A stretch of DNA of 64,000 nt from Bilabrum cf. latius (GCA_965178125.1 OZ237752.1:806001-870000); one strand, 5' to 3'. Shown: positions 202 to 64,000, counted from the first letter of the stretch. Made by a program: numbers and translations. Notes: a model not told the origin generated them from the letters alone.

Positions 202-3200
202 ATGAATCATGATGATGGTACTTCTAGAAGGTCGATAGACCGCAGTGATGGACCTCTATCTTCCGAGTCTTTTCGAGAGTTCGTAGATAGAACCGAGTCT
301 GGAGCACCGTACGTGGTTTTGAATCGTATCGGAGAAGGAAGCTTTGGCAGGGTGTATCGTGGGAGACGAAAGGGGACCGGCCAAATCGTCGCGTTGAAAT
401 TCATCCCCAAGAAAGATCGAACTGCCAAGGACTTGGATGCGCTGCGCACCGAGATAGACATTCTGCGTCGGCTGGAACATCCCAACATAATTAGGATGCT
501 AGATGCCTACGAAACTCCAAGAGAATTTTGTGTTGTGACTGAGTATGCCCCGGGCGAACTGTTTCGCATTCTGCAAGATGACAAGTCTTTGCCGCTGGAG
601 GTTGTGCGAAGCGTGGCCGCGCAGCTCTGCAGGGCTCTGTCTTACTTGCACGACCACAGAATCATCCACCGCGACATGAAACCTCAAAATGTCCTTATTG
701 GCGCCAACGGTAGGGTGAAACTGTGCGACTTCGGATTCGCCAGGGCCATGAGTCTCAAGACTCTCGTGCTCACCTCCATCAAGGGCACGCCGCTGTACAT
801 GGCCCCTGAGCTCGTTCGGGAGCAGCCGTACGACCACATGACGGACGTGTGGGCGCTTGGCGTTATCCTGTATGAGCTATTCGTGGGCGATCCGCCGTAC
901 TACACCGACAGCATATACCGCTTGGTTCAGCTTATCGTCAAGGAGCCTGTGCGGTTTCCGAGCAGCTGCCCCGCCGAGTTCCGGTCTTTCCTCGGTCGCA
1001 TGCTCGTGAAAAATCCGCGCGGGCGGGCAGTGTGGCCTGAGCTTCTCTCCCACCCGTTCATCGATGGAGCGGTCAGGGCGCTGGACGAGGAGGACAGGCG
1101 GGTCGAGCGAGGCCTTGGGGGCGCAGAGGGCCAGGGGAGTGTGAGTGTGGGTGCAGATGGTGATCTATCGGACGGGTCAAGCCAGTTGAAGGGTAAAACT
1201 TCCCGAGTTCACGCGCTCTGCGCCCCTCAGACCCGCCTGGCTTGGTTTCTAGATCTGCACAGATCAGGCAAACTCGACCTGCACGATGGACCTGGCATTG
1301 CCTCCGGATCTCTGAGCAAGGAGGTCTGGGAGGATGACAAGCTAATCATCGTCCCGCTGCGAGATGTGCTACGGCAGCCAGTGGCCCGTCCACATGGAGA
1401 CGCACCGGGCGATGGTGCTGGTGCTGGTGCTGGTGCTGGTGCTGGTGCTGGTGCTGGTGCTGGTGCTGGTGCTGGTGCTGGTGCTGGTGCTGGTGCTGGT
1501 GCTGGTGCTGGTGCTGGTGCTGATGCTGGTGCTGGTGCTGGCGCCCAGGCAGGCCCGCCCTCCCCACCTTCGTCACCGTTTGGACATGAGATGAACTCGA
1601 ACGGTGATTCGTTGCACAGTATGGAAGACACTAAGGCGCCAGAGTTGCCGCTAGAACGCGCGAATGAAGGCGCTTTGGGTACCTCAGAATCGCGCGGGAG
1701 CCCAACTGCAACGGAGGCGGCGCGTGAAGATGCAATTGATGGATCGCGTGATGGATCTGGATCTGGATACTAGACCTCTGTGGAGGCTCGTAGCAGGTTT
1801 GAAGGCACTGGTGAAGGCAAGTTGGGGGACTCTGACTCGGATGGTGCTGCTGAAGATGATGATGACGAAGAACAGCAAGCGCTGCCTAGAACCGCCGATC
1901 GAGAGCAGCACGCTGTCGCTTCTGAGCAGGTGGAGGGTGGCGCGCTGACTCCAACACGCTCGGCTGTGAAAGCACCAGCAGGTGCCGGTGCTCTCGAGGC
2001 CGGCCTGATCAGCCCCGTGGGTCCTCGCGAGCGCGGGGGGCTTCATAATGAGTCTGGGGTGAGCGAGACGGGCGTTGGGCAAGCGAGGTCACTTGCAGCG
2101 GCGCTGGCTGGAACCGGTGTCGGTGCAGAAGAAACAGGAGCGTATCGCGATGGTGGTGATACAACAGGCGAGAGGCAAGATGCCCTTGATTCGAAGGGCG
2201 TCTCGAGGTTGAGAGAGTCAATTGATGAGCTGGGCTGGGGCGGGTCCTTTGAGGAGAGAGAGGGCGAGATGCCGCTGTCTCCTTTTCGGCCCGATAAGCA
2301 AGAGGCAAGCGAAGCGCAGCACGGTGCCGATAGCTCGGCATTAAACCTGACTGGAAACCGTTATGCTGGTCGCGCGTCCCAACAAGTAGCCAAACTGCCA
2401 AGCGAAAGCGCAATGGATGCAGCGGCCCGTGACTCGGAAAGTGCGCCACTGTAGCCGAAGCTGCACTCCCCTCCCCGGGTGCCGAGGCAAGAAAAGCAGC
2501 CTGCTGGTAGCCCCAGGGGTCCGGCAAGGCCCGCCGTAGACGTGGACGCTGGCTAGGCAGATGTTAGGGCGGCTATTTCAGCTCTGTCTGGATCCGGCTA
2601 CTTCGATGATACGCCCAGAGGCAAGTCAGAGTCACGGGATGCGGCGAAGGCTGGAGGTGCGAGGACAGGCGGGTCTAACGCAGAATCCACTGCAGCTCCT
2701 GATGCATTGGCTGGGGATATCCGCGAATCTGTAGGATCTACGAGCCTTTCGAAGACACTGCTCGTCGACGCGAGGCCCTTGGATGAGCGCACACCAACCG
2801 GTGGCTTTGGTAGAACACAACCGGGGCCGGCTTCGAGCCAGCCGGCGAGCAAGTCGGTAGAGCCCGCTTCGAGCGATCATGGCTCTCCTGATGCTGGTAG
2901 TGCCAGGAAGAGCTCACCTCTGAACGCCTTCGAGTGGATTGGAAGCAGCGTTGGCGGACCGGTAGCTGCTGGTACCACCGGCCGCCTAGCGACTCTTGAG
3001 CAGTTTGCGAGAGGGACGGGCGCGGTGCATCTACATTCTTCGGAGCAACTAGCCCCGCATGATGTGTGGGATGCTTTGCTACTGTCAGTTCCGACGGATT
3101 GGCTGGGGGACTAGCAATCCGGGTGTCTACCTGCCTTGGCGGCCGCGCATGGTTCGGCAGTAGAGCGCTTGGTGTCTGGGCGTGGACAAGCCCGACAGCT

Positions 3201-5397
3201 TGCGCAAGCCATGGAGCAGTTCCTCCGGTTGCCTCCGTCTTCACCTGTGTTTTCTTTGGCCCTGCTCTCTTCGATGCGCGCTGGGCTTATGCTCGTGTTT
3301 CTCGTTTACGGCAGCGACCCGCTGCCTGGGCAATTTAGCTCCCACCTAGGCGACGTGGTTCAACGATCTCAGGCTGTGCTACGGGAGCTTGCAGCCAAGG
3401 GTGGGGCGTTTGAGGACGAAAGACACGCGCACTTTGTTGCCCTTGCGCTGGCGTTTAGCTCGGCTGCCCTGGCTGTCCATGACGCGGCTGCAGCTGCGAG
3501 CACTGGTGTCCTGCCACCGTCCACTGGAGTGTTGTCAGCTACTATGGTGTTGCAAGCAACGAAAATACGAAGCAGTGTCATGAGCAAGAGCAGTGGCACC
3601 ACTGGTGGATTGCTGCTGTTGTCGCCAGCGCAATCCACCGGAATCCAGGCTGCATTGCGTGGGCTATCAGCGGGTCGCTCGGGGCCAGTCCATGCCGCAG
3701 TAGTGTCCTTGGCCAGTATGTCTGACTCCGCAAGAGATGTGGAGAGTGGGTTACACCTCCTGCCTGCTTTGTTGCGCGCACCACATGCGGATTCCAGCTT
3801 GAATTACAGGAGAATGCGCGATTGGCAAGCAGCAGCGGCGCGCAGATTTGCGGAGTCCGTTTGGGTGCGGGAGTCCATGGCAGCCACAATTATCGGCGGT
3901 ATCGGTCCAACCGCCAAAGTTGTTTTGTAGGCTTGCGCAGAGTGGTCAACAGCTATCGGAGGGGATGCGTGGGATGATGTTATCGCTATGAGCGTGCCAA
4001 GGCAAGATACAGGAGCCTAGATGTTCCTGCAGTGCATGCGAGTGCTTGCACCTGTGTCCTTGGCAGTGCACACCAGCGCAATGAAAGCAATGCGGAAATA
4101 CGGCGGCAGGAGGGGCCTGTCGGCATGCATTGAAGCCCTACTTGTTGCTGGCCGCGCTCTTGGTGTTGCTTGGGCCGTGCACTCGCGTGCCCGCACCCAA
4201 GGGGGCGCTGATGCAGCTAGTGCGGCTGGTGAGACTGGCGATGTTGCACTCGCTGCGGTGCTTGACGAGTCGCGGGTCGCCGTGGTATCTCTGTGCAGGG
4301 CCAGGGACTCCCTCGCAGCAGAAGTGGCTGCGAGCACCCGCTCAATTGCAGAGGCCGCCGCCGCCTAGTCTTCATTGGTCGATCCTGCAGTCATGGGCCT
4401 GATTCGGAGCGGACTGGTGGCCCTGATTGCGTGTGGAGCACTTGTGCTTGCTTCGAGGACTCCGGCGCCTCGGCCCGTGTCCCGACCTGCAGGACCTGGA
4501 ATTCCCGGTGCCAACACGAGCGACGAGGTGGCTGCAGGGAACCGGCAGCTGGGTCTATCGCCTCCAGGGACCGGCGAGTCGCACGCTTCCAAGGTCGTGG
4601 GCGCGCTGGCAAGCGCGGCGAAGAAATCGGCCCAGGTCTCCAGCGTGATTCTCGGCCCAGAGTCAGCGAGGGCCGCGCCTTCCACGCTCTCCTAGCAGTG
4701 CGCAGCTGTTGCGGCGATTGGCATTCGCGGCCCGTCGCCGTCTCTGTCTGCAAAGATGTCGTATCTTGTCGGGAATATCTGCAGGCACCACGTTCGGGCG
4801 GTGAGCTGGATTGCGCGCAGTTCCGTCTCCTCGCCAACAAAATCGGCCGTGGACGACCGCGACAGCATTGCTACTGCCCTGTGCCACGCTGCGATGCACG
4901 GCTAGACAGACTCCAAGCGAATGGCAATGTATGCGATCGGGAATGCTGCGTACCAAGGGCCCGGAATGAACTCGACTCTCGATCGGTCGGGCTGCCTGCA
5001 GGCGCTCCTCCGTGCATGCAACCCCCGGAGCCCGTCGCCGGGTGGAGGTGCCTTTGACGAGCGGGCCGCTGCGAACGCCGCAGGTGCCGTCGGGAATTTG
5101 GCGCGTCACGATGCCTCTATGGTAGGCAGGATGATCGAGACCCGAGCGCATGAACTGCTGCTGTCTGTCTGCAGGAGAGCAGTGGGGTCAGCAGCAGTGG
5201 CCGAAATGCCAGCTTATGTACTGAACTGCCTGTTTTCGCTCGGCACTCTACTTGTTCACGACTCAATCCGTCGGGTTGTTCTTGAGTCCAACCCTGGTAT
5301 TGTTGCAGAGCTCAATGGGTGGATAGGAGCAGCTGGCAAACGTGGGGTTGCTTGGGATCGGTACGTGCAGCGAGCGCTAGGGCGATTTGGGCAGTAA
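202..5397 (+). CDS. STK36: Fused/STK36 (TIO-like) Ser/Thr kinase with C-terminal ARM/HEAT repeats, ~1730 aa, read through multiple TAG codons
   Basis: N-terminal kinase ([40 protein letters not shown]). ORF pieces at 202, 1780, 2707, 3136, 4021, 4375 and 4921 share one frame and are separated by TAG. The C-terminus has Fused-type motifs ([22 protein letters not shown]). Ends at TAA 5395-5397. Confidence 0.9.
1413..1540 (+). repeat. (GGTGCT)n coding microsatellite encoding a Gly-Ala run in the STK36 linker
   Basis: About 21 near-perfect hexamer copies with one GAT variant. Confidence 0.95.
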
Positions 5398-5528: not shown

Positions 5529-8500
5529 TCATCCCAACTGCGTGGCCCACCAGACACTGACAGCCGCAATGAGGATGGCGATTAGAGCCGCAACCGCAAT
5601 CGAGACGCCGTCTCTCGAGGCCCACCCCTGGGCTTGCTCAACGTTCCTGCCTGCACCTTCCTCATTGCCCTACATCGCAGCTTGCTGCCTCTGCGCCTCG
5701 GCCTCAAGCTCTCGCCGGGCAGCCTCTTCCTTCAGCCGCTGCTTTTGCTTCTTACTCGTTTTGGCAGGCCCTGCTTGGGCTGCCGCATCGTCCGCCTCTT
5801 TATCACGCTATGCCTGCTCCTGAGCCGCGGCTTTAGCTTTTTCGCACTCCTTGTCGCATGCCAGCAAAGAAAGTCTGGTCGGATCGATGATGCCCTGTGC
5901 TGCGCGCATCGTTATGGCTCGCTCGCAGGCCGATTCCTCTGACAACCGCCCGCACGGGCACTTGAGCTGCACCCGCACCTGACAGCTTTGCTGGCCGCTG
6001 GCTGCATCGCCTGCTGCAGGGCACGGTCCGTGGTGGCACCGAGCTTGGCACCTATGAGTGCAGAAAGGAAGCCGCTTGCTGCATACCCTGTCGCACGTTG
6101 CGCCTGGCAGAGAAAGCCATTGCATACTGGTGGGCTGGGCAGCGGTAGCTGCGCCAGCGGGGGCAGGTGCGCGAAGGTGCTGCAAGGCCTAGTTATGCAA
6201 CACGGCATCAGCAAAACCACCTTCGTAGCCATTCCACTGAAGTACGCGCGCTACTTCGCCCCATGCGCGCCCTTGCAGCTGTTTCCGCCGACTTCCTGCC
6301 CCTGATGACGCTGTGGACACACTGGAATCCACATCTCCAAGATACTCTTGGATTGCTGCTTCAACTCCCCGAGCCGGATCACCGCTTGCTCCACCGATGG
6401 CTTGCTGTGACGGCAAAATAATGACCTGTGGGTCAATGCGCAGCGTACCTACTGGTGCCAATACGTCATTTTCAATACCCAGGGCCGCCTATGCAATGCT
6501 GCTGGCGTCACCCTTTGAATCAGAGCTCCCGCTACTTGAGTGTTTAGCAGCAACAGCTAGTATCGACCGGATGGCAGCCTAGTGAAGCTCGGTGCAGGTA
6601 AGCCTGACACTTGCAGAGCCACAGGCACACCTTGACTCGATTGCGATTCGGCAAGGCGGGCAGCTCCCTGCGTGGCACAGGCCTCCAGGCCGCTGTGCAC
6701 ACCTGTGCCCGCATGGCCTCCGCGTGTTGCACTGCAATTGGCACGGCCCACACGGGGCTGGCAGTTTGTCCTCGCCTAGTTTGCTGAGAGCATGGCATTT
6801 CCGTGTGCATTTGTGCTTGCCGCAGCCCAGCATGTTTCCGCATGGTTCGTCGCAAGAGAACAGGGCAGGCATGCAGCATGGCTAGTTTCTGCGAGTGTGG
6901 CCGCCCACGCACGTCCGTTCAACCTCGACCTTGCAGGGCGGGCAAGCGTCCGGGTGATGACACGGCAACGTGCAAGGATGCTTGCACTTGTCGTGTAGCA
7001 ACCCGCATGGCTGCGTGCAGCGAGGGCATGGTCCGAAGTGGCAGCTGTGCATCTGGGGCTTCTCGTGGTGGCAGTCCGGCGTTTTCGTGCACGGTCTCAT
7101 GCAAGTAGGCGGCTTCGTATCTGCGCCGTCTCCGCAAGGCAACTCAACCACCTCGGACCCGCACGCGCACGTCACTACGTCAACTTCTCTGCACGGGAGG
7201 CAGGGCCCGTCATGGCAGAATGCGTCGCAGCGATGCTGGCCGCATGAGAGCATCCGGCCGCAGGCTCGCCTGCAGGGCCTGCACTGCTTGCCTCCGCAGC
7301 AGCGCTTTCTGCACACGTGTCCTGCCCTACCGCACGACAGCTGCCTCCCGCACACCTTGGCGCATTGAAAGGGCTCCGCCTCGCTGCATGGACGCATCGC
7401 TTCCGTAGCTCCGCACTGGCACGTGCGTTTCCTGCGCTCTGGACACGGCCCACAGCTGCCAGCATGGCCGCATTTCAGCTCGCATGAGTGTCGGCCACAT
7501 TCCAGTCGCTTCCCGCAAGTACCACCACAGCTTGGCTAGGATGCATCGCACGGCAGGTCGGGGAAGGAGTTGGCGCCGCAGCCGCAGGTGACTGGCTTGC
7601 CTCGCATCGGGCATGGCATGTGCTTCCCGTCGCAGCAAATCCTACTGCATTTGTGCCTTCCGCATGCAGCGACGTGGGCGCACCTCGTAGCACATGTGAA
7701 CACGGAGTCGCAACAGTCTACCGCTCGGGAAACTGAACCGCAGCGGCACGTCGCATGCACTGCCTCGCGGCAGGGAAGGCAGTGCGCATGGCATGGCTGC
7801 GAGCACCGGTGGCTGCACTCCCGACTCCTGACGATCCAGCGCCCGTCCTTTGCGCTCTCTAGAAGCATTTCCTGCAGGGTATGGAAATCCTGGCTCCAGC
7901 TATTTTGCTGCGTCGCGAAATCTGCGGCCACGTCCGGATGCACCGGCTCTCCATCTACCATCGGCACCAGCACAAAGTCCGTTGAACGCATGTGCCCCAA
8001 GGCTGGGTCGCTCGTTTTTGATTCAGAATGTCCGCCAGATCGGCTTGAGGCAGCCCCAGCCCCAGACGCTGCTGCACTGCCAAGCCCATGGGAAACGTCG
8101 TCCTCCTCGTCCTCATCCTCGTCCCAGTCATCGCGCATCGATCGCATGGCGGATTCCAGCTGCTCCTACAACTCTGGGTGCTGCCTCACCGCTTGCGAGA
8201 CGGCGCCACCGGGAAGCGGAGCGCACACCGACCCATGCTCCTTCTCGCCAGTGCCGACGCCCTGGCAGTCTGCTCGCACCTAGATATCCACCCACCACTG
8301 CCTCAATGGCTTCCCGCAGGCAGTCCCACAGCTGATGCGCGGAGCCCCGCATCGTCTCACAGCCTGTACGCGTCCGCAATGGCACGATTGCCTGACGGTT
8401 TGCGGGCAGGGTCCGCAGGGCCCTCTGTGGCACTGCCCGGAGCAAAAGTGGGGACAGCCGGGCAGCTGCCTGCCGCAAACTCCGCCGCACGAGTGAGGTT

Positions 8501-9185
8501 CGCTGAATCCGTGCGGGGAGGGGTCGGCCTCCTTACCGCAGAAACAGCGGTATGTTCTCAGGTCGGTTTCTACGGGATACATGCAGCCGCATGCGCTGTT
8601 TGGGCAGTCCCACACGAGGCCGCCCCCAGCACCCGCTGCCTTGGACAACCTCGTACCAACGTGTTTCCGTGCCCACCCTTGCATACAACTAAGATGTGCT
8701 AGCCCGAAGCACCCCTCCGAACACTGCCATGTACTGTCTGCTGCTGAAACTGGCTTGCCGCATGCGATGCAATCATTGCCCAGATGCAACGGCGGCCGAA
8801 GCCTCCTATCGTACGCATCAGCAGTGCGATTAACACGGTGCTTGATAGCGCTATGGGATACTTGATTTGCACCAACAACATCCGCATCATCGATGGCTCC
8901 ACCTTTGCCCCGGAGGACGCGCCCGCTTCGAGGTTTAGCAGCAGCTGCAACTGTGCTTGCGGAGCTTGTCTCGCGACTAAGTGTCACAGGATCATGGCTA
9001 GACCGTGTATCATGTTTTCCACTGGATCCGGGTGGCTGGCCTGTTCCATGACCCGAGACTTCCCCGCGCCCTCGACCTCGTCCAAATGCAGCCAAAATTG
9101 AAGCTGTTTCTTGCTCATGGGATCCTTGAAGCTTTCTCCGGCCTCGGCCTCGCCCGCCACTAAACACACCAGACAAACTGTCCAT
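5529..9185 (-). CDS. NFXL1: NFXL1/NFX1-type zinc-finger protein with RING-like domain, coiled coil and C-terminal TM anchor, ~1220 aa
   Basis: N-terminal CIAC...WQC...HLSCMQGW...WDCP, YRCFCGK, PHSCG and many C-x3-C-H-x-G-x-C-x-P-C NFX1 repeats. C-terminal hydrophobic segment VSIAVAALIAILIAAVSVWW. Same-frame fragments joined across TAG; ends at TGA 5529-5531. Confidence 0.87.
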
Positions 9186-9520
9186 TAAAAATCTATCAAA
9201 CCAGCATGCGATTAGCCGTAATATTGCTTTGAAAACGACTTGCACTTGTTCGTTTAGATGCACGCAACAAAGCGTACCAATACCAGACACTCGAGTAGGC
9301 CATATAAACAGAAATATAGTCGGCTGAGTTTGAGTTTTGGCCGTGTTGATCACGAGATTGTATAATTAGGGTATACTTACCTTGCTTGGGATACCTGAGA
9401 TTGTTTGTCAGCACATTGCTGGTATTCAGGACAGCCCGATTCGTTTGAATCTGCAATCAGACTTTGACTGCATTGCCTTCCCATCGCTTTGCGGGACAAT
9501 TTAGGTGGCTACCCGATATC

Positions 9521-12500
9521 ATGAGCGATAAAGCTACAGATGTATCACATGAGGGGCATGCTGCAAGACTCGGTTCACTTGGAAGCCTGAAGGTATCGCC
9601 TGGCCGTGCCGCTGCTGGCCCTCAGGTAGGTGCAGAGATTCACAATGGGCGAATATAGTCGCCTCCAAAGCAGCAAGTGGGCGCATTCATAGTACAAGAT
9701 GATGATGAAACACCCCAGAGACCTGGGGCGGCCGCAGACATGACAGCAGAAGCTGCACCTATTGCTGCGTCCAGCTCGGCCCGCGGCACGGAGCCGAATT
9801 CCACATCGTCTGGCGCGGCTGCTAGCTCTGGCCCGATGCCCGATAGTGATACACACGCATCGTCATCCTCCTCATCGCTGCCGGGCCGAGCTGACCTGGA
9901 GGCAGACGGTTCCGCGGAGGAGCTGCAGGAGCAACTTGAAGGGCTGAGGAGCCTCATGGCCCCTTTGCGAGCATCTCCAAGGAACGCAGGAGCACAGGGC
10001 AAAACTAGCCCCGTCGATCTGAAGGCCATTGTCAGTGGCCTGCTCGCTGCAGATGCCATCAGCGCCAGCGAGGTGCTGCCCAAGGAAGCGGTGCACGCAG
10101 TCGAGCACTGGGCTGGGCCTCGAGGCCGCGAATCAGCCGTCTCCTCTGCACCGCCTCTTCCTATCGAGACCGAACTGAGGCTGAAATGCGCGATATGCAA
10201 ACACGTTCCCCAGGATAAATTGCCTTGCCCGCTCAGGGACCTGGTGCTGTCGCCCCCACAGCCACAGCTGCACCTCACCTGCTCGCTGCTGCTGCTGCAG
10301 CTCAGGCAAGTGCTTGGCATCGCCGACGGAGACGCGCACGAAACTGGACAGCTCATCCTAGCCGAAGGGGAGGATCCCCTCGACGTTCCCTCCGATTATT
10401 CTTACTTTTCGTGGACAGGCCTGGACCCCGAGACGGGCGCAGGCATGGCGGACCCCCTGGCGCACGGACTGGGCCACGTGCTCGGCGAGGAGCAGGCGGC
10501 CGGTGTGATCGACCGAAGCATCGCCGCCTCTTCGAACCTGGCCATGCCGGCCCCACCGCAGTCTTCGTCTTTAGGATCCGCGTTTGGGATGCCACCTGGT
10601 CCTAGCGAGAGGTTGGCTGTCCACCCTGCAGGGCAATCGGGCGGACAGCCCAACCCTCCGGCAGGCCAGGCTGCCATGCAAGATGACGAGGATGAGGACG
10701 GGGAAGTGGGCCCGCAGCAAAACGGTGGGAAGGATGAGCAAACGTGTAATGCTGGTGATGCCATGGACCCTGCTGCGGAAGCCCTCGCCGTGCTGAAGCA
10801 GCAGCGGGGCGACAATGACGGTGACGAGAGCGCTGGCGATCAATCCGATGAGGAAGAGGGCGAGGATGGCCTGAAGCCGCCTGAAAACAGCCAGTCGCCA
10901 TACCCCTTGCAGCTGCCAGGGCCCGGAATGGGCTTGCCCCGCCCGGCAAGAAACGAGTGGACTTCCTCCCAGTGGGCCGTCGGGGCTTTCGCAGGGATAG
11001 GCCCGCCCAAAGGTGCGCATCGGGCGGGGCGGGCCGGGGCGCGAGCATCGCGGATGGAAGAGGACGATGCGATGGAGCCGCTGCAGGTGACGATCGGGGC
11101 TGGGACTGGCGCATCGGAGTACTTCGCGGTTGTGCCCCAGGGGCCCGTGGCCCCCCTGCTGCTGTGTGCAGCGTGGAGGGGCCAGCTTTCCCTGAACGGC
11201 TGGTAGCGCGAGTTTCTTCGTAGGTGCTTCTCGCCGCCTGAGCACCCCGGCTAGCGAGTCATTGAACTGACACGTGGTAACGGCAGCCTGGTGCACACGC
11301 GGTATGTGCCGCGCGTCTACAGCGACTTTGAGTCCCTGCTTGCCGAGGGCCGTCGGGGCAACGGCGAGCTCACTGAGAAGAGGCAAAGGGCAGCAGACGC
11401 CGCCAAAGAGACCACGTCTCTACGCAGTGAAATCCTTCGGCTGGAAGCCGAGGAGGAGGTTGCCAAGCAGAGAGCGGAGGGTGGTGATGAGGAGCATACC
11501 CCCGAGGCCGGAGGCAGTGGCGGTGATGGCAGCGAGGACAAAGCAGTCCCACAGGAGGATTTAGGCGGCAGCTCTGCTGCTTCTGGCAAGCAAATTGAGC
11601 AATCGGCAGTACCTATGGAAGACGGAAAGGACGCTTCGGATGAAGCCAGCTCTGGTGCGCAGCCTAGCGATACAGGAAGCAACCAGAGCAGCAAGCCGGA
11701 CGACCCAAAGGTCATCACCCAGCAGGGCGCGACCGCGGCTGCGGCAACTTTTTTGAGGTATTTTGCGGGTCCCAAGGATTCAAGTTCGGCCGGGACCCCC
11801 GAGAAGATCGACCCGGTCATCCGAAAGATCCGCACCATGCAAGTGCTCGGAACACACCACATTTTCCTGTGTGGCAGGTGGGTGGCGTGCGGCCTGGGCA
11901 AAGGCAACTTCTGCAGGAGATTCAGGGACGCGGGCTCATTACCAGGGCGCATGCTCTTTGCTCTGTACCTTGACTTGCAGGAGCTTGTGCTTCCTGGATC
12001 TCTTGAAGCAAGCGCGGATCGGTCAGTGCAGGAGGAATGCGAGGGTGCCCGCAGGCGTGTGGAGAGGCAGGAAGGCAGGCGGGACGCGCTTCGACGGCGG
12101 CTAGAAAAGGTCAAGACCGCTCGTGAGCGCCGGCTCGACGAAGAGAAGCGGCGCAAGGAAGCGAAGGAAGCTGCCGAGAGGGCCGAGCAGGAGATGCGCG
12201 AAGCGGCAGCGAATGGGACGGACATCCCCGACGCGTTCCAGTGGCTGTCCTTCTGCGATCCAGTCAGGATCCGCATGATGCCGCCGAGCGTGAGGCGGCC
12301 GTTGCACGACGTGTCGTGGGACGAGGCCACGCCGTCTTCGCCGGATGCCGTGCAAGATCAGGACCAAGAGGAGGATCCACTGGAGAGTGCAGAGGAACGC
12401 AAGGAGCCAAAATCGCTTCATGTCGACGAGGTACCGGCCCAAGCCGCCATGTAGGATGAGGAGGGCGAAGATAGCGAGTTCATCTATGCCAGTACGCCTC

Positions 12501-18359: not shown

Positions 18360-18497
18360 TAGGAGAGATCCTAGCCCTGTATCGGGTGCAAGTGCCTCGT
18401 CTTTCGGAAAATCCGGTATATTTGATTAGCATTGCAAAACTGCTCGCAACCAATCCAGCCGTTTGACAGCATCTTTCGGACGCAATATCACCGAACC

Positions 18498-41923: not shown

Positions 41924-42467
41924 AGAAACTTGCTAACGTTCAACTTCGCGTCGGCGATCTGCGACGATGTGGGACAATGGAGCATCCAAGTCACCGTGCA
42001 ATCAACACTGTTTGGAAATGACGTGATGGACGACAGCGCTGCGAGACTCTCGAAAACATACCTTGGTATAAAACAGCGAAAACTCTCTAGATCCATGCTT
42101 GCAGGGCAAACGGATTTGACTGGCTGTGCAGTACAGACGAAGAACTCTACATTTAGCTTGATTCAACCGATTGCAGGTCGAGACGCGCTACGTACGGTCA
42201 GCCGAAGCAACCTATTATCGAATCACAGAGCTTGGGATCGTGATGGGGAATACTTGCTGTCGGCCAACGCACGGGATTGGCCGCCACTCGTGTTCGAAGC
42301 CTCGTAAATTTAGCTTGCGACGCCACAAATCCCACGTCGCCTGTTGTGGTCGCAACACAATCATGCCTCACGTGACCGATCGGATCTTTGCGACAACGAT
42401 CTTGCTCTCCAGATACACTTCTTGGGCAACACTAGCACACCCTTGATACTTTTGTTTGTTTCCACAT

Positions 42468-53300: not shown

Positions 53301-56300
53301 CTGCGCCCTTCAGCAACGCCCTCTTCCACGGCAGACTGACCGGTTTCCGGTGAGGCTGCGCCAGGGTCAGCCGCTGCTGCGTCCTCGGCGGGCTCTTCTT
53401 CGTCCTGACCTGCGTCGTCCACGGCAACTAGTTTGTCCGCACTCGCCTTTACAGCAGCGCACCATTCGGCGACTCGGTCGTCGGACACGGCGACGGTTAG
53501 GACGCGCCTCATCGTTGACCTTGCGGTCTTGACGGCGGCCAGCCCGGCCTGCAGCGAAGCGCCTTGCTCGGGATCGGCCTCGCCACCGCTCCGTGCAGCA
53601 TCGGCCAGCGCGCCGGTGGCCTCGAGCAGGTCGGTCACCGTGTCGCCTTTCTGCACGGCTCGGCTGAAAGCGGGGATTTCCTTGATCGCCGTGTGCAGGA
53701 ACAGGCCGACGCTTGTGATCGCCTGTGCCGCATCTGCGGCCCTCTCGCTCGTGCTCCTGGCCGCATCTGAGAGGCCGCTCAGCAGCGCAGCAATGGACCT
53801 GATCATCCCATTCGAAGCCTTGCGGCCCGTGCCAGCCAGTGCAGCGATGCCGCGGCCGGTAGACATGGCTGCGAGGCACGCGGAGACGTACCTGTAGGAC
53901 TCGGGCGGGAGGTTGCTATCGGACAGCAGCCCAGTGAGGAGCGCAGCTTCAGCTGCCAGGGACACGGAGTTCGAGCTCGAGGCCGCGAATGACCCGGGCC
54001 TTCCCCCTGGAGTGGCCACGTCTCGTGCCGCGGCGGTGCAGTCGACGAGCAGCTCTGAGATGGCGGCGATGAGGGTCGGGCTCCACCTCTACGAGTAGGA
54101 CGAGGGAGAGGATGAGGATGAAGGGTCTCCGGCAGAACCAGTGCCAGGAATAGAAGAGGTCGCAGCGGCAGTCCCTGATCTGCCCCTTGAACTGGAGCTT
54201 GCCGGCAGGATGGAGGAACCAGCAGGCGACAGTACGGAATCGATCATGTGCCTCGCTGCACCCAGCAGCAGCACGACTTGGCTAGTATCCTTGGCCGCAA
54301 TAGCACCGGCGGCTTCATCACCGGATGGCACGGATCCAGCGCCCGATGCTGCTGCTTTTTCGCCGCTCTTCGCCGTAGCAAGGGCTCCCCGTATGGCTTG
54401 CGCCAGGTGGTGCGCCACCACCTCAATACCCTTGGTGGCAGCTGCCAGCTCGGCGGGATCCATGCCCGTCTCGTCATCGTATTCGCCGGTCGCGTTGGAG
54501 GTGGAACTGTTCCTCGCGCGCGCTGCTGCAGCTGCTGCGTTGGCGTCTTCTGCGGCCGCGCGCTGCATGGCTCCCTGCATCTGCTCCCTCTTTTTGTTCT
54601 TGTCTCTGGCGTTCTATTGCAGCCCGCGTGTCATGACCGCCATGGAAGCGGCAGACCGGAGGAGCTTTGCCAGCTGCTTCCGGGATCGAGCCGGGGCTTT
54701 GAGGCCCGGTTTAGCTCCCGGGGCAACCTTTTGCTCCTTAGCTTCCTTTGCGATTGCCTCTGCCAGGGCGGGCGATGCTGTCCGGAGCAGCTTGTCCACC
54801 ACCCTCACCGCCCTCACCGCCGCCTCGTGCATGCTGCTCGTGCTGGCGCCCATCTTGGAGCGGCTGTCCTGTCCGCTTGCTTTTGAGGACACGAGCTCGC
54901 ACGCCTGCAGCAGGTTCAGACCGGATGCCACCAGCGCGGGCACACCGCCGCCCACGACGGCCCGGTCGCTGAAACCGGGCAGTGCGATACATGCTTCCAG
55001 CACAGACAGCTGCTGCAGGAGCGCGGCTGCCACCGACTTGGGAGACCCGAGGTCGACCTCGTCCACGAAGGCCCGTGCCAGCTCCTGATCCGCCGCGCTC
55101 GACCCCGGTGGGCTCTTGGCGTCCATGCCCAGCTCAACCATCGCCCCATCCACGTCCCTAAAAAGTGTCTCGTCCCCTTGAGAAGACCGGAGCGAGCGCG
55201 CTAGGATAGCCACAGCGGCCAATCTGCCTGGCACCGACTGTTCCCTGATGCTGGCCCTCGTGAGTAGGGCGAAGATCCCTCGGATGGTGTCGCTCGACTT
55301 GGCCACCTTGAGGGCACGCAGCGCGGCGGCAAGCTGACGCTCGTTCGCGAGTCGTGAGGCCTTGTCACCTCCTGCGGGTGCAGCTGCGGACAGCACAGCC
55401 AGCAGAGCCATCGCTGATGTCGCGATGGCAGTTGCCGTGGAGGGAGTAACAGCGGCGGCGAATGCGAGGTCTGGCTTCGAGGCCGCAGAGGCACCGCTGG
55501 CCTGCTAGCCCGCTTTGGATTTCTTCTTTCCTTTTGAAGCTGCCATCAACTTGGAGTCAAGCGCACCCACTGCCTCTAGGAGGGCAGTTGCGGCGGTGCC
55601 GAGTGCGCCAGCTCCGGAAGGTGGCGATGAAGTGGCGGCAGAGTCACCGGCGCCGTGCACGCTGTGCCCCAAGGCCGCCGCAGCGCCGGCCATGAGCCTC
55701 GCGATCGCGATGCCGTCCAGAGCATGACCCGCCCCACCTTCTGCGTCAAACGCGACCGTGGCGAACTGCACCAGGCCCGCCTCTGCGAGCACGTCATCTT
55801 CGAGCATCCCAGCCTGCGCGCTGGCCACCACCCGGGAGGCTGCCGCCAGGCACTCGGGATCCCCCGTGGCCCACGCGGGGAGCAGCTCACGGAATAGGCT
55901 CACCTGTACGTCCCTGATCTATACAGGTTCGGCTTTCCGCTCTTTGGCAGTAGCCTCCTGCCTGGCTTTTTTGAGCTGCGCCATGCCCAGCCGGACGATC
56001 CCGCCGGGCCGGCTCAGGAGGCTGCCCAGGGCGAGGTAGGCCGCCTTGGCGCCTCTAGGAATGGAGGCATCGCTGCCTGCAGACTTGGCGGAGGTGCTGG
56101 TTTTCGTTGCCTCTTTGACGGCGGCGAGTGCCGCGACGGAGGCCCCGCTCCGAGCGAGCGCTTCGGCGACTTGCGGGGACTTGCAGGCGGCCATGCGGCC
56201 CAGTGCGACCATCGCGCTCTCCCGCTGCTCCGGGCTGGTCGGAGCCTTCGTGCCCTTGCCTGCAGCGAACTGTACCAAACGATTAATGAACGCTTGGTGC

Positions 56301-57450
56301 TTGTGTTGCTTGGCTGCCCATTTATTGGACATGCATGCCGCCGCGAGTCGCTGGAGCGCTGCAAGGTCGAGCGCGGCCTCGGCTGCAGCATCGTCAGCAG
56401 AGTTGGCAGACTGCATGATTTCCTCGAGCGAAGCGGCTGCAACGGCCCCGAATACGTCGGCGTATGCAATTTTCGCAGACGCGCACGTGTCTTGGCACTC
56501 GATCCGAGTCAGGAGAACTCCTTCGATTCCGGCGGCTCTGCGGCAGGATGGTTGGGTAAACAGAACCGCAGCCATATCATGGATTCGATGCAATCGTTTT
56601 GTAACGAAACATTGGGCGCCAGTACATTGTCTTACTTGTTGATGGCATCGAGACCTCCTGGGTCGGAGCTCACCGCTCGCAGGAGGCGGGCCGCAGCTGA
56701 TGCGAGCTGCGGGCTGTGCCGTCCGAGGCCGGCCAGTTCCAAGGCCTCTTTCGCCTGCACGCAGTCGATTACAACCGCATGCCTTTCTGTGTTTGTGCCA
56801 TTGACGCAGCCGAGAAGACCCAGGAGGGCGCGGCGCGCCGTGGGCTCGCTCGAATCACCTCCGATCCGTTGGCTGGCAGGGGGCACGATCAAGCTCATCA
56901 GGGCCCGAGACACCCCCTTGACGTCAGCACCGGACTGCTTACTAGAGAGAAATGTGCTCATTACTGCCGCGGCTTGAGGCATGGTATCTGCCAGCTTGTC
57001 ATCCAGAGGCGCTGCTGCAGCACTTCCACCGAAGAGGCCAGTGACGTATGCTGCCACAGCCTCAGCTGCAACGCCCAAGGCCTCGCTACCCTACGACGTA
57101 TTACAGCTAGCATGCAATAGTCGGATGCACTGCCGAGCTACGTTGGAGACGTCGCCAAATTTGCTGAGGACGCGAGCTACGGCTGGGATCATTCCGAATT
57201 TGGCCGCAAGCTTCGCTTTCCGCAGCCATCCCTTCGCTGGACTTACGGCCACATCAGCGAGTGCCTGCAATAGTCAAGTGTGAATTGGTAGCTGGAGTCG
57301 AAAGTATACCTGTAATGCTGAGTGAAGGCAGCGAATCTGCATAGCACGAACCTCGGTTGCCCAAGCCGCTAGCCGCTTGAAATTGCGGTGCTTCTTGATT
57401 TCTTGCACAAGCTTTTGAACAGCAAGCTCATCATCTTGTTTTGAAGGCAT
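50342..57450 (-). CDS. Large ARM/HEAT-like solenoid protein with C-terminal MyTH4-FERM-like module and no myosin motor, ~2300 aa; introns 56538-56635 and 57265-57351
   Basis: MyTH4 motifs: AFGCALRYAGE, LSNEIYIQLMKQLTHN, YWSLLSMVAGTFPP. A FERM-like region follows. Ala/Leu-rich helical repeats lie upstream. Frame is continuous across TAGs and two GT-AG introns; ends at TAA. Confidence 0.75.
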
Positions 57451-58191: not shown

Positions 58192-61100
58192 TCACCTCCC
58201 CACCCTCCTCCTCTTCATGGGATGCACTACATCGGGGTCCACCCCCCTCGCCATACGGGCCAGCACCGAGATGGCGTGCCCTGCAACATGGACCACATCG
58301 CCGCTGCCAAAGTCTCTCAGGCGCTTTAGGGGATCCACCGCACCGGCATCCACCACTGCCTGTGCCAAACCATTCGATCCTACGGCAATTAAAAGGAGCG
58401 TGCCCGCCGCAGCTGCAACATACTACTCATTGCTGAATCCCAGCAATGCAACCAGGCGAGTCAGGGCGTGCGCATTCACCACAGACTACTTCAAGCTTAC
58501 TGATCCAGCAGCCAAACCCCTAAGAGCTTCAGCGGCCCCTTGGACCATGTAGGCCTTGCCCGAGCCCAGCAGCGCCACCAGTCCTGGCAATGCGCCCGCA
58601 TCCACCACAGACTGCTTCGTGACATCCGATCCACTGGCTACACTCCGCAGCGCCCCAGCGGCACGCTCGGCCTCCCTGCCCTTGCCCGAGCCCAGCAGCG
58701 CCACTAGTCCTGGCAATGCGCCTGCATCTACCACAGACTGCTTCATCGCATCCGATCCACAGGCCACATTCCATAGTGCCCCAGCGGCACACTCTGCCTC
58801 CCTGCCCTTGCCCGAGCCCAGCAGCGCCACCAGTCCTGGCAATGCGCCTGCATCCACCACAGACTGCTTCATCGCATCCGATCCACAGGTTACAATCCGC
58901 AATGCACCAGCGGCACACTCCGCCCCCCTGCCCTTGCCCGAGCCCAGCAGCGCCACCAGTCCTGGCAATGCGCCTGCATCCACCACAGCCTGCTTCATCG
59001 CATCCGATCCAAAAGCTACATTCTACAGCGCCCCAGTGGCACACTCGGCCTCCCTGCCCTTGCCCGAGCCCAGCAGCGCCACCAGTCCTGGCAATGCGCC
59101 TGCGACCACCACAGACTGCTTCGTGACATCCGATCCATTGACCACATTCCATAGTGCACCAGCGGCACACTCCGCCTCCCTGCCCTTGCCCGAGCCCAGC
59201 AGCGCCACCAGTCCTGGCAATGCGCCTGCATCCACCACAGACTGCTTCGTGACATCCGATCCATTGGCCGCATCCCACAATGCACCAGCGGCACACTCCG
59301 CCCCCCTGCCCTTGCCCGAGCCCAGCAGCACCACCAGTCCTGGCAATGCGCCTGCATCCACCACAGACTGCTTCATCGCATCCGATCCATTGCCCACACT
59401 CCACAATGCACCAGCGGCACACTCGGCCTCCCTGCCCCTGTCCGAGCCGAGCAGCGCCACCAGTCCTGGCAATGCGCCTGCATCCACCACAGACTGCATC
59501 ATCGCATCCGATCTATTGGCCACATTCCGCAGCGCCCCAGTGGCACACTCTGCCTCCCTGCCCTTGCCCGAGCCCAGCAGCGCCACCAGTCCTGGCAATG
59601 CGCCTGCATCCACCACAGACTGCTTCATCGTATCCGATCCACAAGCCACACTCCACAATGCACCAGCGGCACACTCGGCCTCCCTGCCCTTGCCCGAGCC
59701 CAGCAGCGCCACCAGTCCTGGCAATGCGCCTGCATCGATCACGCTGGTCCGGTCCTTATCCCCATTGCTACAAATCCACAATAACAGCATTGTTGCCATC
59801 TCATGACTCAAAGGCGCACCACCGCATGACCTCAGGCTCCCAACGATCCTCTTTGTCTCTTTAGTGTCTACCATCACGTGGTCTTTGGCTTTCTTGCAGA
59901 TTTCACAAACAAGTTTTCGAACCGCTGACGAGTATTCCAAGGTAGCACCGGCACATGTCTCCAGCTACCGCAGCACTCGGTATACGCCGTCCCAGTTCTG
60001 TGTCGCCATGTAAGAATCTGCCATTGCCCGCACCTTTCCAACAGCGGCATCACAGCCAGCGCCGCCAGCTACCAACACTGGCAGATACTCACTAATGTCG
60101 CAGTCGGCTAGAACACGAGGACCGTCCAGCTTCATCGATCGAAGCAACCGCACTGCCTCCGCCATAGACATCCTATCCTCGGGATGGACACACAGCAGCT
60201 TCTTTACCACGTCCGTATACCATAATGGACGCTTCGAAAGCGCATCGTGCCCAGCTGTCTGGGACTTGCATGCATGTAGAGCAGTTGCAAGCTGCCCAGA
60301 ACGGGCCTTGCTCCCGTCCTGCAGACACACCGGATATCGGTCCCCGAATGGGTGCTATCCTCCTGTGGCCAGCTCATGCAACAGCAAGCCAAGCCCCCAT
60401 GACGCCTGTTTGCCAAAAGGCACTACAGCATCCATGTTACCTGCCGCCCCCCTGTGCCACCCATCCAGCACCTCAGGTGCAAGGTGGGCCTGGTTGCCGC
60501 CGATCCCATCGCCCCCATCTTTCAGGTACCGGTACGTGACCCGATCCAGCGCCTCCATTGCAGCCGATTCTGTTGAATCAGCACCGTATCCGTGTGACTA
60601 TAGGGATCCCGTCGTAGGAATTGAAGATGCCGCGGAAGAGGAAGAGAAAGAGGACGAAGACTTCGCGGCTGCAGCTGCTACACCGCCCGACCCTGCTGCA
60701 TCCACGTACACGCGCAAAGAGCACCCCAGGTCAATCAGCACCGCACGACCCACGCCTTCCGGACCCCCGTTCGAGTCCCACAGCACGTTGTCCAGCTTCA
60801 GGTCACGGTGCACCACCCCGTGCTGCAGCAGGTGATGCACGCCCTCCGCGATGTCGCTGGACAGCTGCACCAGCACATCGTCAGGCATGGATCCAGGCTT
60901 GCCTTCCTCCAAAATCGCCAAGTGGTCGCACATCCGCCTCTTCAGCAGCTCCATGCCCACCATCTGGGCCTTGCGCGGGTGCAGCGGGGCCGAAGCTCCA
61001 CCGGATGGCAGTTCCTCCTCGTCCTCGTCATCATCGCCGTCATCCACGCACACCAAAGATGGATCTGGTAGCATTCTCACCATCCACACGGGCGGGGGGC

Positions 61101-61530
61101 ACACACACTCGAACACGATGCGCGCCAGGTTGCGATGCTCGGGCAGGCGAGCGAGCACATCGAACTCCTTCTGGGAATCGTTGGTCTCCAGCCTGGACGT
61201 GGACAGACCCCAGTTGAAGACAGTCTTCACAGCAATGTAGTCATTCCTACGTTTTGTTTCTCTAGCCTTGGAAGCACTGTTGGCCTTTGGAAGCGTGACG
61301 CGAAACACGGCGCCGAAGCCACCGTGACCGAGCAAGACCCTGCCAGACTTGGGCTTCTTGCAGCGCTCCAACAGAGAATTTGCAAACTTGCGTCTCTGAG
61401 ACTAGGTTCCTGCCCTGGTCATGTGGTAGACATCTACCACGCTAGCTGGTAGAGCAGGCGGAGGATAAGCGCTTGGCTCTTGCGCACCTGCTCCGTTGCT
61501 CACTCCCGATGCAGCCATATGATTGGACAT
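58192..61530 (-). CDS. PINK1-like protein kinase fused to an armadillo repeat array, ~1110 aa
   Basis: LGHGGFGAV, IAVK, HRDLKLDNVL, LIDLGCS, GGNQAHLAPEV, ELATGG(TAG)HPF, followed by ~12 42-aa ARM repeats. Ends at TGA. Confidence 0.8.
58555..59740 (-). repeat. About 9.5 near-identical 126-bp tandem repeats encoding 42-aa ARM units
   Basis: Consensus SVVDAGALPGLVALLGSGKGREAECAAGALxxVxxGSDxxKQ; nucleotide period is 126 (e.g. CGAGCCCAGC at 58561 and 58687). Confidence 0.95.
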
Positions 61531-61776
61531 CGCTGCCTTCGTTGTGGCTTTAGTCAATTAAGGAGCAGTTTGGAAAACGAGTTTGAGCCCCTGGCGTCTT
61601 GCCTAGGATTCAATTGAATGATTGATCGCTGATGAAAGAATCCATGCGTGCAGTGTCTTCTTATCTGCTTCATCTTCATTATGGCTCTTTCTGAAAAAAC
61701 TGATTGTAATGCTCATAATAGTCTCCCACAGCGCAATTTCCAGTCAACTAAAGCACGTTTCCCGCAGATTATTGTT

Positions 61777-62916
61777 ATGGCATCAGTGAAGGTCGAACCA
61801 GAACTCAAGGCTTCGCCAGCGGCAAGAGATGAGCTGCGCGAGATTCGATCAAATTCCTTCGAGCACAGGGGCTGGCAGTTTTCATACACAGAGGGGCCCA
61901 TTGGAACTTCTTTGGAGGAAGAAGCAGCGCAGAAAGAAATAGGCCTTCCTCAGGGCGTGCCTCTCCCCGAGTAGCTGTTCGTGCACAACTCGGTGCGAGT
62001 GAAGCACGTCGCGAGCGGGCACAGCTTCACATTCTCCCCGGTGGGGGCCTTGAGACAATGGCACAGCCGCCAGGTACAGACATTATAGACGGATGACAAC
62101 CCCGTATCGGCCACGAACTGTGACCCGTCCTTCGTGTCTGAGTACTCGGGGGAGCTTGCTTGCAGCTCCATGGCAGGCAGCTCATCTGCAGCCGAATCTG
62201 GGGACGCTGGCACCACATACTCATGGCCATCACTAGCCAGTGATGTCAGCATCAGATTGAACAGGTCACCTGAAGCCTCGCTGCCGATGGACCGCCTCCG
62301 CCGGCAGGGTGACATTCTGTTCGCTTGCGAAGTGGTGCTCTTCGACGACGACCTGCACGACATGGGCATCAGCAAGGCCGTGGTGAAGCTTCGAGTCATG
62401 AAAGACTGTTTCCTGCTCCTCTACAGGCATTTCTATTACAATGCGCTAGACGCAACCGACAAGCTCCGCCTTCGCGATGTGCGCCTGGCCGCCTGCCTTG
62501 ACGAAGCACCGAGCAAGTGCTCGTGCGAGTTGGTCGCAGATATCTAGCTCCGCACAGGTGCAGCCATCGAGGTAGCCAGAAAGACTCCCGGACTCGGAGC
62601 CGGAGCCGCTCCCTGGGCCTCGGCCTCGGCTAGGCCTGTGCCTGGCGGCGCTTCGGCTGCTGCGACCGGCGGCAGCAGGGCAGGCGCCCCTGCAGCGGCG
62701 GTCGCCGGCAGCGCTGTGTCTCGGCCTGCGACTAGTGGCGCGGACTCGGGGGCGGGCGTGGCTGAATCAGCGCTGCGGCGCGTTGCACCAGCCCCTGATT
62801 CGATTAGCGCCCCAGGGTCGGATGCTGCGAGGGCCCTGCGGGTGACCGAGCAAGAGGTGTTTGCTGCCCTCGAGCCGACCGAGCACATTGTGGCTGCACT
62901 TCCACTGAAATCGTGA
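61777..62916 (+). CDS. TIPRL: TIP41-like PP2A regulator
   Basis: PLPE(TAG)LFVHN, ILFACEVVLFDDDLHDMGIS, VKLRVMKDCFLLLYR, LRLRDVR. Ends at TGA. Confidence 0.85.
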
Positions 62917-63095
62917 TTGCGTTGCTGCAGCAAGACCGTTGAACAGATAGATCTATTCGAATCTACACCGTGGGCATTTGTTCTCATTCTCATTTCATCG
63001 AGAACGAGGTTAAATGACCGCACAGTTTATTCGTTTCGACGTATTCACAGTTCAACGCAGGCTGTCTCACGCAGCTATAGTATTTTGACTCCGAT

Positions 63096-64000
63096 ATGAG
63101 CGGCATTTGGACCAAAGAGACAGTAGCAGAGAGAATCGGAGCGAATGCATCGGATGCCTTGCTGCTACCGCCAAAGGGAATGGGGACCACGCACGAGCAC
63201 AGCTCCATTGTTGAGGATGCGAATGTTACTCTGTACCATGCTTCTGCATAGGCACTTCGTAGCTGTAAATGGATGGAATCGAATGGGATTGTTGCGATCG
63301 TGAACGCTGCTGGTTTCGAGCTTCGAAAGTTTCCGCGAGAGGCCCTAAAGGCATCCGGTATTCACTTGCACGATATCGACATGGATGACTCTGAGAAGTG
63401 GGTCGGTAGCAACGATGCGGTGGAGTTCCTGGCGGCGGCAGCAGCGCATACGCAGGCAGGGCTGGAGCGAGCGATGTGGCTCGTTCTCGAGGCCTCAAAA
63501 CCGGGCAGCGCCGGGACAAAAGGGCGACCAGCCCATGCGAGCAGTACGATAGAAGATACACCTTACTCTGGGAACGCAGGCCCCTCCGCGGAGCCACCGC
63601 TGCCGAAAGCCGGCGTGCTAGTGAACTGCGCGATGGGCCGCAGCCGCAGCTCCTCGGTCGTCCTCTGGTGGATCCTGACTTACGCACAGCCAGACTGGAC
63701 GCTCCTGGACGCGCTGTGCTTCCTGCGAAGCAGACGCACGTGGGCCTACCCCAGGCTGTGCTTCCTCAAGATTCTGTACCGCCTGTCGCTCGTGCCCGGC
63801 AGGCTCCGCGCCTCGGTCGCTCGCGGCGGGGACCTGGACGAGCTGACAGTGCATCCAGTGGGCCATTCTATGGATGACACGGCGGCATCGGGCCATTCTA
63901 TGGATGACACGGCGGTATCTGGCCATTCTATCGATGACACGGCGGCATCGGGCGGGGCTGCGGCTGCCACGGATACGGTAGCTGTGGTGAAGGCGGGGTA
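63096..64000 (+). CDS. Dual-specificity protein phosphatase, 3'-truncated by the window end
   Basis: GIVAIVNAA, DIDMDD, VLVNCAMGRSRSSSVV (CX5R loop), WTLLDALCFLRSRR. One in-frame TAG; the frame stays open to the window end. Confidence 0.82.
63861..63950 (+). repeat. Three 30-bp coding repeats (GHS[MI]DDTA[AV]S)
   Basis: GGCCATTCTATGGATGACACGGCGGCATCG and two near-identical variants in tandem. Confidence 0.9.

Follow-up and report, generated by a model that had tools for sequence, protein, structure and literature searches.

This analysis concerns the meaning of the codon TAG in the genes of a 64,000-nucleotide stretch of DNA filed under Bilabrum cf. latius (GCA_965178125.1 OZ237752.1:806001-870000), referred to below as the window. 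Reading TAG as a sense codon resulted in 16 frames of 327 to 3416 codons that tile nearly the whole window on both strands (Table 1). The longest of these comprise 3416, 2171, 1881 and 1733 codons, while under the standard code the longest frames reach only about 500–700 codons. Stop-to-stop frames of at least 400 amino acids sum to 25,702 amino acids when TAG is sense, as compared to 6,065 for the standard code and 6,485 when TAA is made sense instead; the gain in open reading frame (ORF) length is specific to TAG. The 16 frames hold 112 in-frame TAG codons, at least two in each, and 107 of these lie past the first ATG, corresponding to 5.9 per 1000 codons. Not a single internal TAA or TGA was found in the 18,112 codons of these frames, where about 410 would be expected from off-frame frequencies of 3.4 and 19.3 per 1000, defined as the rates of TAA and TGA, respectively, in the two remaining phases of this DNA. 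None of the 112 interruptions is accompanied by a frameshift, and Pfam domains sit 3' of many of them, including the amidase domain, a kinase C-lobe that follows more than 20 TAGs, MyTH4 and the armadillo (ARM) repeats. A preliminary description of this DNA, made from the sequence alone, had reported dozens of in-frame TAGs in otherwise intact frames, and the counts bear this out. The coordinates given in it were all correct on re-check, the TAGs in question lying at 58488 (ARM repeats), 29865 (homocysteine S-methyltransferase), 43733, 43550 and 43547 (putative PAC2), 33415 (kinase) and 26027 (ATP-grasp-like gene).

Nuclear in origin, the window belongs to a eukaryote with a compact genome and few introns; the guanine plus cytosine (GC) content is about 60%, varying between 58 and 64% along the whole 64 kb. 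By Pfam the encoded proteins form a typical eukaryotic set, to which one bacterial-type penicillin amidase is added. No tRNA genes were detected in the window with ARAGORN or Rfam, no other RNA genes were detected in it with Rfam, and eRF1 is not among the genes that it encodes.

Table 1. Genes of the window, with TAG read as a sense codon (positions counted from the first nucleotide of the window).
Gene	Position	Strand	Codons	In-frame TAG	Terminator	Family match
Fused/STK36-type kinase	199..5397	+	1732	9	TAA	Pfam Pkinase E 1.8e-74
NF-X1-type zinc-finger gene	5529..9365	-		9	TGA	Pfam zf-NF-X1
Family-less frame	9449..15091	+	1880	6	TGA	
Family-less frame	15984..18425	-	813	2	TGA	
Low-complexity Tudor-like protein	18426..21833	+		11, incl. 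QGQG-TAG-G-TAG at 20223-20243	TGA	
Penicillin amidase, bacterial-type, with N-terminal membrane extension	22202..25801	-		5	TGA	Pfam Penicil_amidase E 6e-183
ATP-grasp-like gene	25754..27820	+		4	TAA	weak Pfam ATP-grasp_4, under curated cut-off
TRM10-type tRNA m1G methyltransferase (introns ~28197-28344 and 29215-29317)	28007..29599	-		3	TGA	Pfam tRNA_m1G_MT
Homocysteine S-methyltransferase (HMT)	29595..31649	+		5	TAA	Pfam S-methyl_trans E 7.8e-47
Giant multi-pass membrane protein with AGC/Greatwall-like kinase domain	31754..42264	-	>3400	30	TGA	Pfam Pkinase E 1.2e-45
Possible proteasome assembly chaperone 2 (weak)	42468..43796	-		6	TGA	phmmer human PSMG2 E 0.6
Channelrhodopsin-like gene, last exon, with long C-terminal extension	44035..46965	-		2, incl. 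CAG CAA TAG CAA	TAA	Pfam Bac_rhodopsin E 1.9e-30
MyTH4-FERM-like protein (C-terminal region)	50342..56854	-	2170	8	tandem TAA TAA	Pfam MyTH4 E 1.3e-20; myosin VII MyTH4-FERM structures
Kinase with 10 near-identical armadillo repeats	58192..61557	-		7	TGA	Pfam Arm E 5e-48
TIP41-like gene	61636..62916	+		3	TGA	Pfam TIP41 E 4e-20
Dual-specificity phosphatase-like gene, runs off window	63018..63998	+		2		Pfam DSPc

Several of these genes have unusual architectures. The amidase has an extra membrane region at its N-terminus as well as an acidic insert. Its best homologues, about 30–35% identical, are mostly bacterial and the named ones are all bacterial, mostly from Polynucleobacter; by these matches the gene looks like an acquisition from bacteria. 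The kinase domain of the giant membrane protein is split between its DFG and APE regions by an insert of about 650 amino acids. The channelrhodopsin-like gene has an extension of about 750 amino acids that is rich in Arg, Ser and Asp. As its frame opens at about helix 3, the missing 5' exons must be located between 46966 and about 48600. The catalytic part of the ARM-repeat kinase has PINK1 as its closest solved structure (E 2e-7), and its repeats, 42 residues each, are so alike as to suggest recent expansion or homogenisation. Low-complexity expansions are frequent: several genes contain poly-Asp and poly-Ser tracts, and a perfect, long (Ala-Gly)n dipeptide run is located at about 1400–1550 on the plus strand inside the Fused gene. 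Between 48659 and 50331 both strands are open, the plus strand for 487 amino acids with one TAG and the minus strand for 540 amino acids with four; neither strand of this 48.6–50.3 kb segment matched a Pfam family.

Public runs of four studies, under as many organism labels, also contain the window stretch, and four runs (X1, X5, X6 and X7) were compared across positions 22001–42000. In run X1 one contig spans this entire interval with no differences from the window and keeps the introns, that is, it represents DNA; X1 may be the source of the window. In run X5, which comes from a different study, contig breaks coincide with gene boundaries, and the contigs skip 29215–29317 (103 nt) and ~28197–28344 (147 nt), two pieces with CT..AC ends that correspond to GT..AG on the coding minus strand. 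A 10,446-nt contig of the same run covers 31716–41960 of the giant gene with no differences and resumes at 42064. This jump is consistent with a third GT..AG intron, 103 nt long, at about 41959–42061 on the minus strand, and run X6, from a third study, also has the 103-nt joint. The X5 contigs are therefore spliced RNA, since three GT..AG introns retained by the X1 DNA contig are missing from them. No run is recorded as RNA in its metadata and X5 was automatically guessed as 'probably DNA', so the RNA nature of X5 and X6 is a reading of the splicing. RNA contigs identical to the window include 22001–25631, over the amidase gene, and 25744–28199, over the ATP-grasp-like gene; the amidase is thus expressed, as it is present among the RNA contigs. 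The genes of the window are consequently not all intronless: three spliced GT..AG introns (147, 103 and 103 nt), all on the minus strand, were seen in the 20 kb checked, and the genome is intron-poor but not intron-free. Because introns exist, the 5' ends as delimited at 31754–42001, 28007–29248 and 44035–46965 are not true N-termini. The upstream end of the giant gene is likewise approximate, about 200 more bases of RNA contig extending beyond 42064.

The RNA contigs retain the TAG codons. Positions 22001–42000 contain 47 TAGs; X5 contigs span 46 of them with no differences, and the 47th, at 29676, lies one base past a contig end. X6 and X7 are identical to the window at TAGs wherever they cover them, and no TAG lies inside any of the three introns. 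Editing or splicing of transcripts at TAG sites, either of which the preliminary description had named as fatal to its reading, was accordingly not encountered in these contigs. Contigs mask minority variants, however, and what they exclude is complete editing, which formally leaves some room for partial editing. Nine differences were listed between other contigs and the gene at 31754–42001, drawn from diverged contigs in X1, X5 and X6 together with variants in X7. All nine are at third codon positions and eight of them are synonymous. They lie near the 5' and 3' ends of the gene, those at the 3' end coming after 29 TAGs. As the differences are confined to third positions and are mostly synonymous, the frame of the giant gene is under purifying selection across its TAGs. 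There is next to no probability left for the view that the TAGs are not translated as such and reflect sequencing or assembly mistakes, mRNA editing to CAG, leftover intron sequence or pseudogene decay. Introns do occur in the region, and nothing else speaks for such an artefact; against it, the assemblies of three studies (X1, X5, and partly X6 and X7) carry the same TAGs, the T is kept in spliced RNA, the copies differ synonymously, the introns are free of TAG, and TAG alone of the three stops interrupts the frames, without frameshift every time. These data rule out misassembly, pseudogenes and complete editing, and UAG stands in frame within real, expressed and selectively constrained coding sequence.

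The residue encoded by TAG was examined at sites where homologous positions could be compared. In the HMT gene the TAG at 29865 (ASY-TAG-AS) falls in a column that is glutamine (Gln, Q) in 147 of 147 homologues, these being the 150 best matches of an exhaustive search minus three fragments of the close copy described below. E. coli MmuM (PDB 5dml) reads ASYQAT at the site. The preliminary description had picked out this SY-TAG-AS motif as a Gln site, and the invariant column agrees with it. A close copy of two of the window genes is present in public protein libraries, there as fragments only: three ORF fragments of HMT (P0241, P0242 and P0369) and two of the giant gene (P0391 and P0392), with 786 of 967 aligned residues identical to the window (~81%). 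Opposite the five window TAGs that they span, these fragments have Q, Q, Q, Q and S, P0241 carrying a Q at HMT TAG 29865. At the three Q sites in the giant gene, window and copy agree wholly or largely in the six flanking residues to the left and right, while the S site is in a variable stretch where half of the neighbouring residues differ. Substitution frequencies counted from the same close-copy alignments gave the following log10 likelihoods of the five residues: Gln -3.3, His -6.7, Arg -8.8, Ser -13.5, Leu -14.2. Gln was ahead of the next residue by more than 3 log10 units, and of Ser and Leu by about 10–11.

The ends of the fragments are informative as well. Three of the five terminate exactly at window TAGs; the close copy, read by the standard code, stops at the same codons and these TAG positions are therefore common to both sequences. 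P0392 begins about 30 residues after the end of P0391 in the window frame, for both the longest contig is given as 33,759 bases, and the close copy appears to use TAG in frame too. Runs X1 and X5 also yielded contigs that match short stretches of the giant gene at about 85% identity, with a depth similar to that of the main contig. The second, diverged copy could be a homeologue in a hybrid or duplicated genome, or could belong to a co-occurring sister species.

Further sites are found within the window itself. In one of the ten near-identical ARM repeats a TAG occupies a position at which the sister repeats have CAG in nine of nine cases, in agreement with the K-TAG-S site of the preliminary description. 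TAG also occurs within Gln-rich runs, namely CAA GGT CAG GGC TAG GGC TAG (20223–20243) and CAG CAA TAG CAA (~44700, minus strand), and makes up about 14% of Gln codons when counted as one (107 TAG, 469 CAG, 184 CAA). Fused-family alignments contain a single TAG within a significantly aligned domain; this codon, at residue 1568, aligns in the C-terminal domain mostly with D or E (D 75 and E 25 of 119), which is compatible with a polar residue at TAG. In the putative PAC2 gene a G-TAG-MA motif aligned to GQLA of human PSMG2, placing TAG opposite Q. This sole match (phmmer E=0.6) came without Pfam support, no Pfam family being matched even at E<=10, and the family assignment proposed in the preliminary description was not upheld. 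Nor did its kinase site, APEIIKG-TAG-PF, serve as evidence for Gln, as in PDB alignments RSK kinases have Q or R there and the column is variable. In an alignment of the amidase with 120 homologues the TAGs fall in insertions or in one unreliable column and have no bearing on the meaning of the codon, and comparison of the ARM-repeat kinase and the phosphatase with PDB placed no TAG in a reliably aligned column. The residues up to three positions from TAG showed a 1.5-fold enrichment of Gln and a 1.7-fold enrichment of His, but Gln did not stand out in the profile correlation, and the comparison was uninformative.

A number of observations weigh against Gln or against the breadth of its basis. 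Informative sites are few, amounting to one hyperconserved family column and five sites in one close copy, and the majority of TAGs, being in insertions or variable regions, have no reliable counterpart in distant homologues by which to score them. The close copy may reside in this organism itself and not in another species, as runs X1 and X5 too contain diverged contigs matching parts of the giant gene, and is thus not phylogenetically independent. It has Ser at one of the five TAG sites, and its two remaining fragments end opposite the window codons TCG (Ser) and TAC (Tyr), each of which differs from TAG by one base. A second ARM TAG is matched by TGG in five, CGG in three and AGG in one of the sister repeats (Trp/Arg). 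Another TAG in the AGC kinase is opposite Leu or Met of RSK in a variable column, LPE-TAG-LF in TIP41 corresponds to LPEMMF in human TIPRL (Met), and the MyTH4 TAG is opposite Ala in myosin VIIb.

These observations would be expected in part if TAG were a sense codon for some other residue, be it Ser, Leu, Glu, Lys, Tyr or Trp. The Ser in the close copy and the fragment end opposite TCG favour Ser; Met and Leu stand at the TIP41 site and one kinase site; and Trp, whose codon TGG is one step from TAG, fills the second ARM column in five of the nine sister repeats. The Ser assignment moreover has a precedent in a green alga in which UAG is Ser with UAA and UGA as stops (PMC8271138), and the window rhodopsin is of a green-algal type. 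We nevertheless consider another residue improbable. The HMT column is Gln throughout, the close copy has Gln at four of five sites including all three with wholly or largely identical flanks, the CAG column of the ARM repeats is uniform, and the likelihoods favour Gln over every residue compared. As for Leu, no TAG was found at any conserved Leu column and the TAGs keep out of conserved hydrophobic cores, unlike in the Leu case described in PMC5304391. Gln thus appears well supported as the best meaning of UAG, with Ser, Leu and Trp poorly supported, as judged from the compared sequences. The central claim of the preliminary description, that UAG is read as Gln, stands in this form: UAG is a sense codon and most probably Gln, on account of the HMT column, the close copy and the ARM repeat.

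Termination was evaluated next to the question of sense. The window contains 15 complete frames, five ending in TAA and ten in TGA, and a 16th frame that runs off its end. The earlier statement that 16 complete gene models end in TAA or TGA was right as to the codons and wrong as to the number. UAA and UGA are the terminators seen here, and not one of the 15 genes, a small sample, needs TAG as a terminator. A TAG is found within 50 codons of the end in six genes, as compared to about four expected from the density of TAG. Three tails of 37–46 codons that follow a late TAG have a GC content at third codon positions (GC3) of 0.67–0.73, versus 0.47–0.57 downstream; in the frame at 9449..15091, for example, the tail of 37 codons past the last TAG has a GC3 of 0.70 and the sequence beyond the stop 0.47.

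Part of the evidence leaves room for a less complete reassignment. In two of the 15 genes a TAG (at 31774 and 50365) precedes the TAA or TGA by 5–6 codons, as against about 0.7 predicted from TAG density, and one of these near-terminal TAGs is also the point at which P0392 of the close copy stops; conceivably, then, TAG acts as a terminator in some contexts. Of 110 bases that directly follow an in-frame TAG, 38 are C, whereas C makes up 23% of first codon bases overall, and the base following the 15 terminators is T or A in 12. A C directly after a stop codon is associated with leaky termination. In addition, near-cognate readthrough of UAG by Gln has been documented (PMC13192750). An ambiguous code could account for these features, TAG being mostly Gln but a context-dependent terminator or, in a variant, being read by near-cognate tRNA-Gln(CUG) in competition with a weakened eRF1 and without any dedicated tRNA. 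We regard this as unlikely, albeit less so than a different amino acid. Inefficient readthrough could not pass the 30 TAGs of one 10-kb mRNA, the longer tails past late TAGs are coding-like, no window gene requires a TAG stop, and the excess of near-terminal TAGs is not significant. An ambiguous code overlaps with complete reassignment to Gln and differs from it in mechanism and completeness only.

Taken together, cytoplasmic translation in this organism very probably follows NCBI table 15, in which UAG is a third Gln codon and UAA and UGA terminate. Following the reasoning of PMC5304391, a tRNA-Gln with anticodon CUA would read UAG and not UAA, the CUA anticodon being the only simple way of reading the one without the other. 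Such a tRNA would probably have arisen from tRNA-Gln(CUG) through one anticodon change, and eRF1 would have lost or weakened its recognition of UAG (PMC5304391).

Placement of the organism was sought from several of the window genes. The Fused kinase domain is 54–69% identical to orthologues across eukaryotes. In two Fused trees the window sequence came out on a long branch (1.2–1.5) with no supported partner, outside the supported clades of metazoans, oomycetes, ciliates and Viridiplantae and outside one clade that includes a chrysophyte. A join with Plasmodiophora was flagged as long-branch attraction. Among the nearest Fused and HMT matches a single one, P0228, bore a taxon label, that of the chrysophyte Epipyxis, which is at most a faint hint of a stramenopile. 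Compared with solved structures, the opsin scored 112 bits against the Chlamydomonas ChR1/ChR2 chimera and 53 bits against the cryptophyte GtACR1. It is clearly closest to chlorophyte cation channelrhodopsins among these structures, but a single gene of this kind can be transferred. The TAG-free part of the rhodopsin matched generic rhodopsin clusters in a protein atlas, with no taxonomic signal. No close relative with intact ORFs was found in large protein libraries or in JGI metagenomes, where a scan with the amidase returned six loci of 26–31% identity. The stramenopile origin considered in the preliminary description is thus unproven, being neither shown nor refuted by a Fused kinase on a long, unplaced branch and a rhodopsin nearest to those of green algae. 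The presence of a Fused kinase and a channelrhodopsin indicates that the organism probably has a flagellate stage.

Nuclear code changes are rare and the uncoupling of UAG from UAA is rarer still, known from few lineages (PMC5304391, PMC11687900). Each independent case tests whether reassignment of UAG alone takes a single repeatable route, a CUA-anticodon tRNA together with a change in eRF1, and further cases also bear on whether GC content or genome compaction has a role. That the window represents an independent origin of the UAG-only-to-Gln code outside ciliates and metamonads, in a compact and GC-rich genome, can be proposed only tentatively, and we would place it slightly below an even chance. 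If it does, the reassignment is old enough for a copy about 19% diverged at the protein level to share individual TAG positions and, if the organism is culturable, it would offer a tractable non-ciliate system for the uncoupling of UAG and UAA, with DNA and RNA already public from four studies. Gene callers using the standard code would fragment nearly every gene of this organism. As such calling breaks genes, annotation, orthology assignment and contamination screens will be wrong for the organism, and for samples that contain it, unless table 15 is applied.

Among known codes, UAR is Gln (table 6) in many ciliates, hexamitin diplomonads, oxymonads, ulvophycean green algae and Amoeboaphelidium protococcarum. 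The ulvophycean case is treated in PMC2984419. Table 6 resembles the code of the window in that UAG is Gln and a mutated tRNA-Gln and an altered eRF1 are presumed. It differs in that TAA is sense and TGA the sole stop, whereas in the window TAA is never in frame and ends five of the 15 genes. It was rejected, there being no in-frame TAA and no lengthening of ORFs with TAA as sense. The Condylostoma/Blastocrithidia type, with all three stops reassigned, was rejected on the absence of in-frame TGA and TAA. Reassignment of UAG alone is also known with other residues. In Scotinosphaera (Ulvophyceae) UAG is Ser and UAA and UGA are stops (PMC8271138; PMC11687900); as in the window only UAG is reassigned and both TAA and TGA are retained, and the chlorophyte-like rhodopsin makes a link to the green lineage conceivable. 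The window differs in reading UAG as Gln, not Ser, and in a Fused kinase that does not group with Viridiplantae, and the Scotinosphaera type was rejected given Ser at just one of five close-copy sites and the invariant Gln column. UAG is Leu in the rhizarian exLh, recovered from an insect transcriptome, where it stands at conserved Leu in 82 of 86 hyperconserved sites (PMC5304391), and in three uncultivated phyllopharyngean ciliates (PMC11687900). Like the window, exLh has only UAG reassigned and turns up in data filed under another organism. The exLh type was rejected on the likelihoods of Leu and Gln given above and on the lack of TAG in conserved Leu columns.

The code that matches is NCBI table 15, in which UAG alone is assigned to Gln and UAA and UGA remain stops, and translation with it reads the window TAGs as Q. 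In Iotanema spirale (Fornicata) UAG is Gln and termination relies mainly on UAA (PMC5304391), and UAG is also Gln in the ciliates Protocruzia tuzeti, Hartmannula sinica and Trochilia petrani (PMC11687900). The suggestion in the preliminary description that the code may be undescribed is superseded by these cases. Full-text searches, which covered mainly open-access articles without their supplements, turned up no UAG-only Gln code for stramenopiles, for green algae or for any GC-rich non-ciliate beyond those named here. Compared with the organisms that use table 15, the window is set apart by its GC content of about 60%, its compactness, its very long genes rich in low-complexity sequence and its short GT..AG introns, and from the ciliates among them by a Fused kinase outside the ciliate clade. 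The preferred stop also differs, being TGA in the window (10/15) and UAA in Iotanema and the phyllopharyngeans (PMC5304391, PMC11687900). It may therefore be the host lineage, and not the code, that is new.

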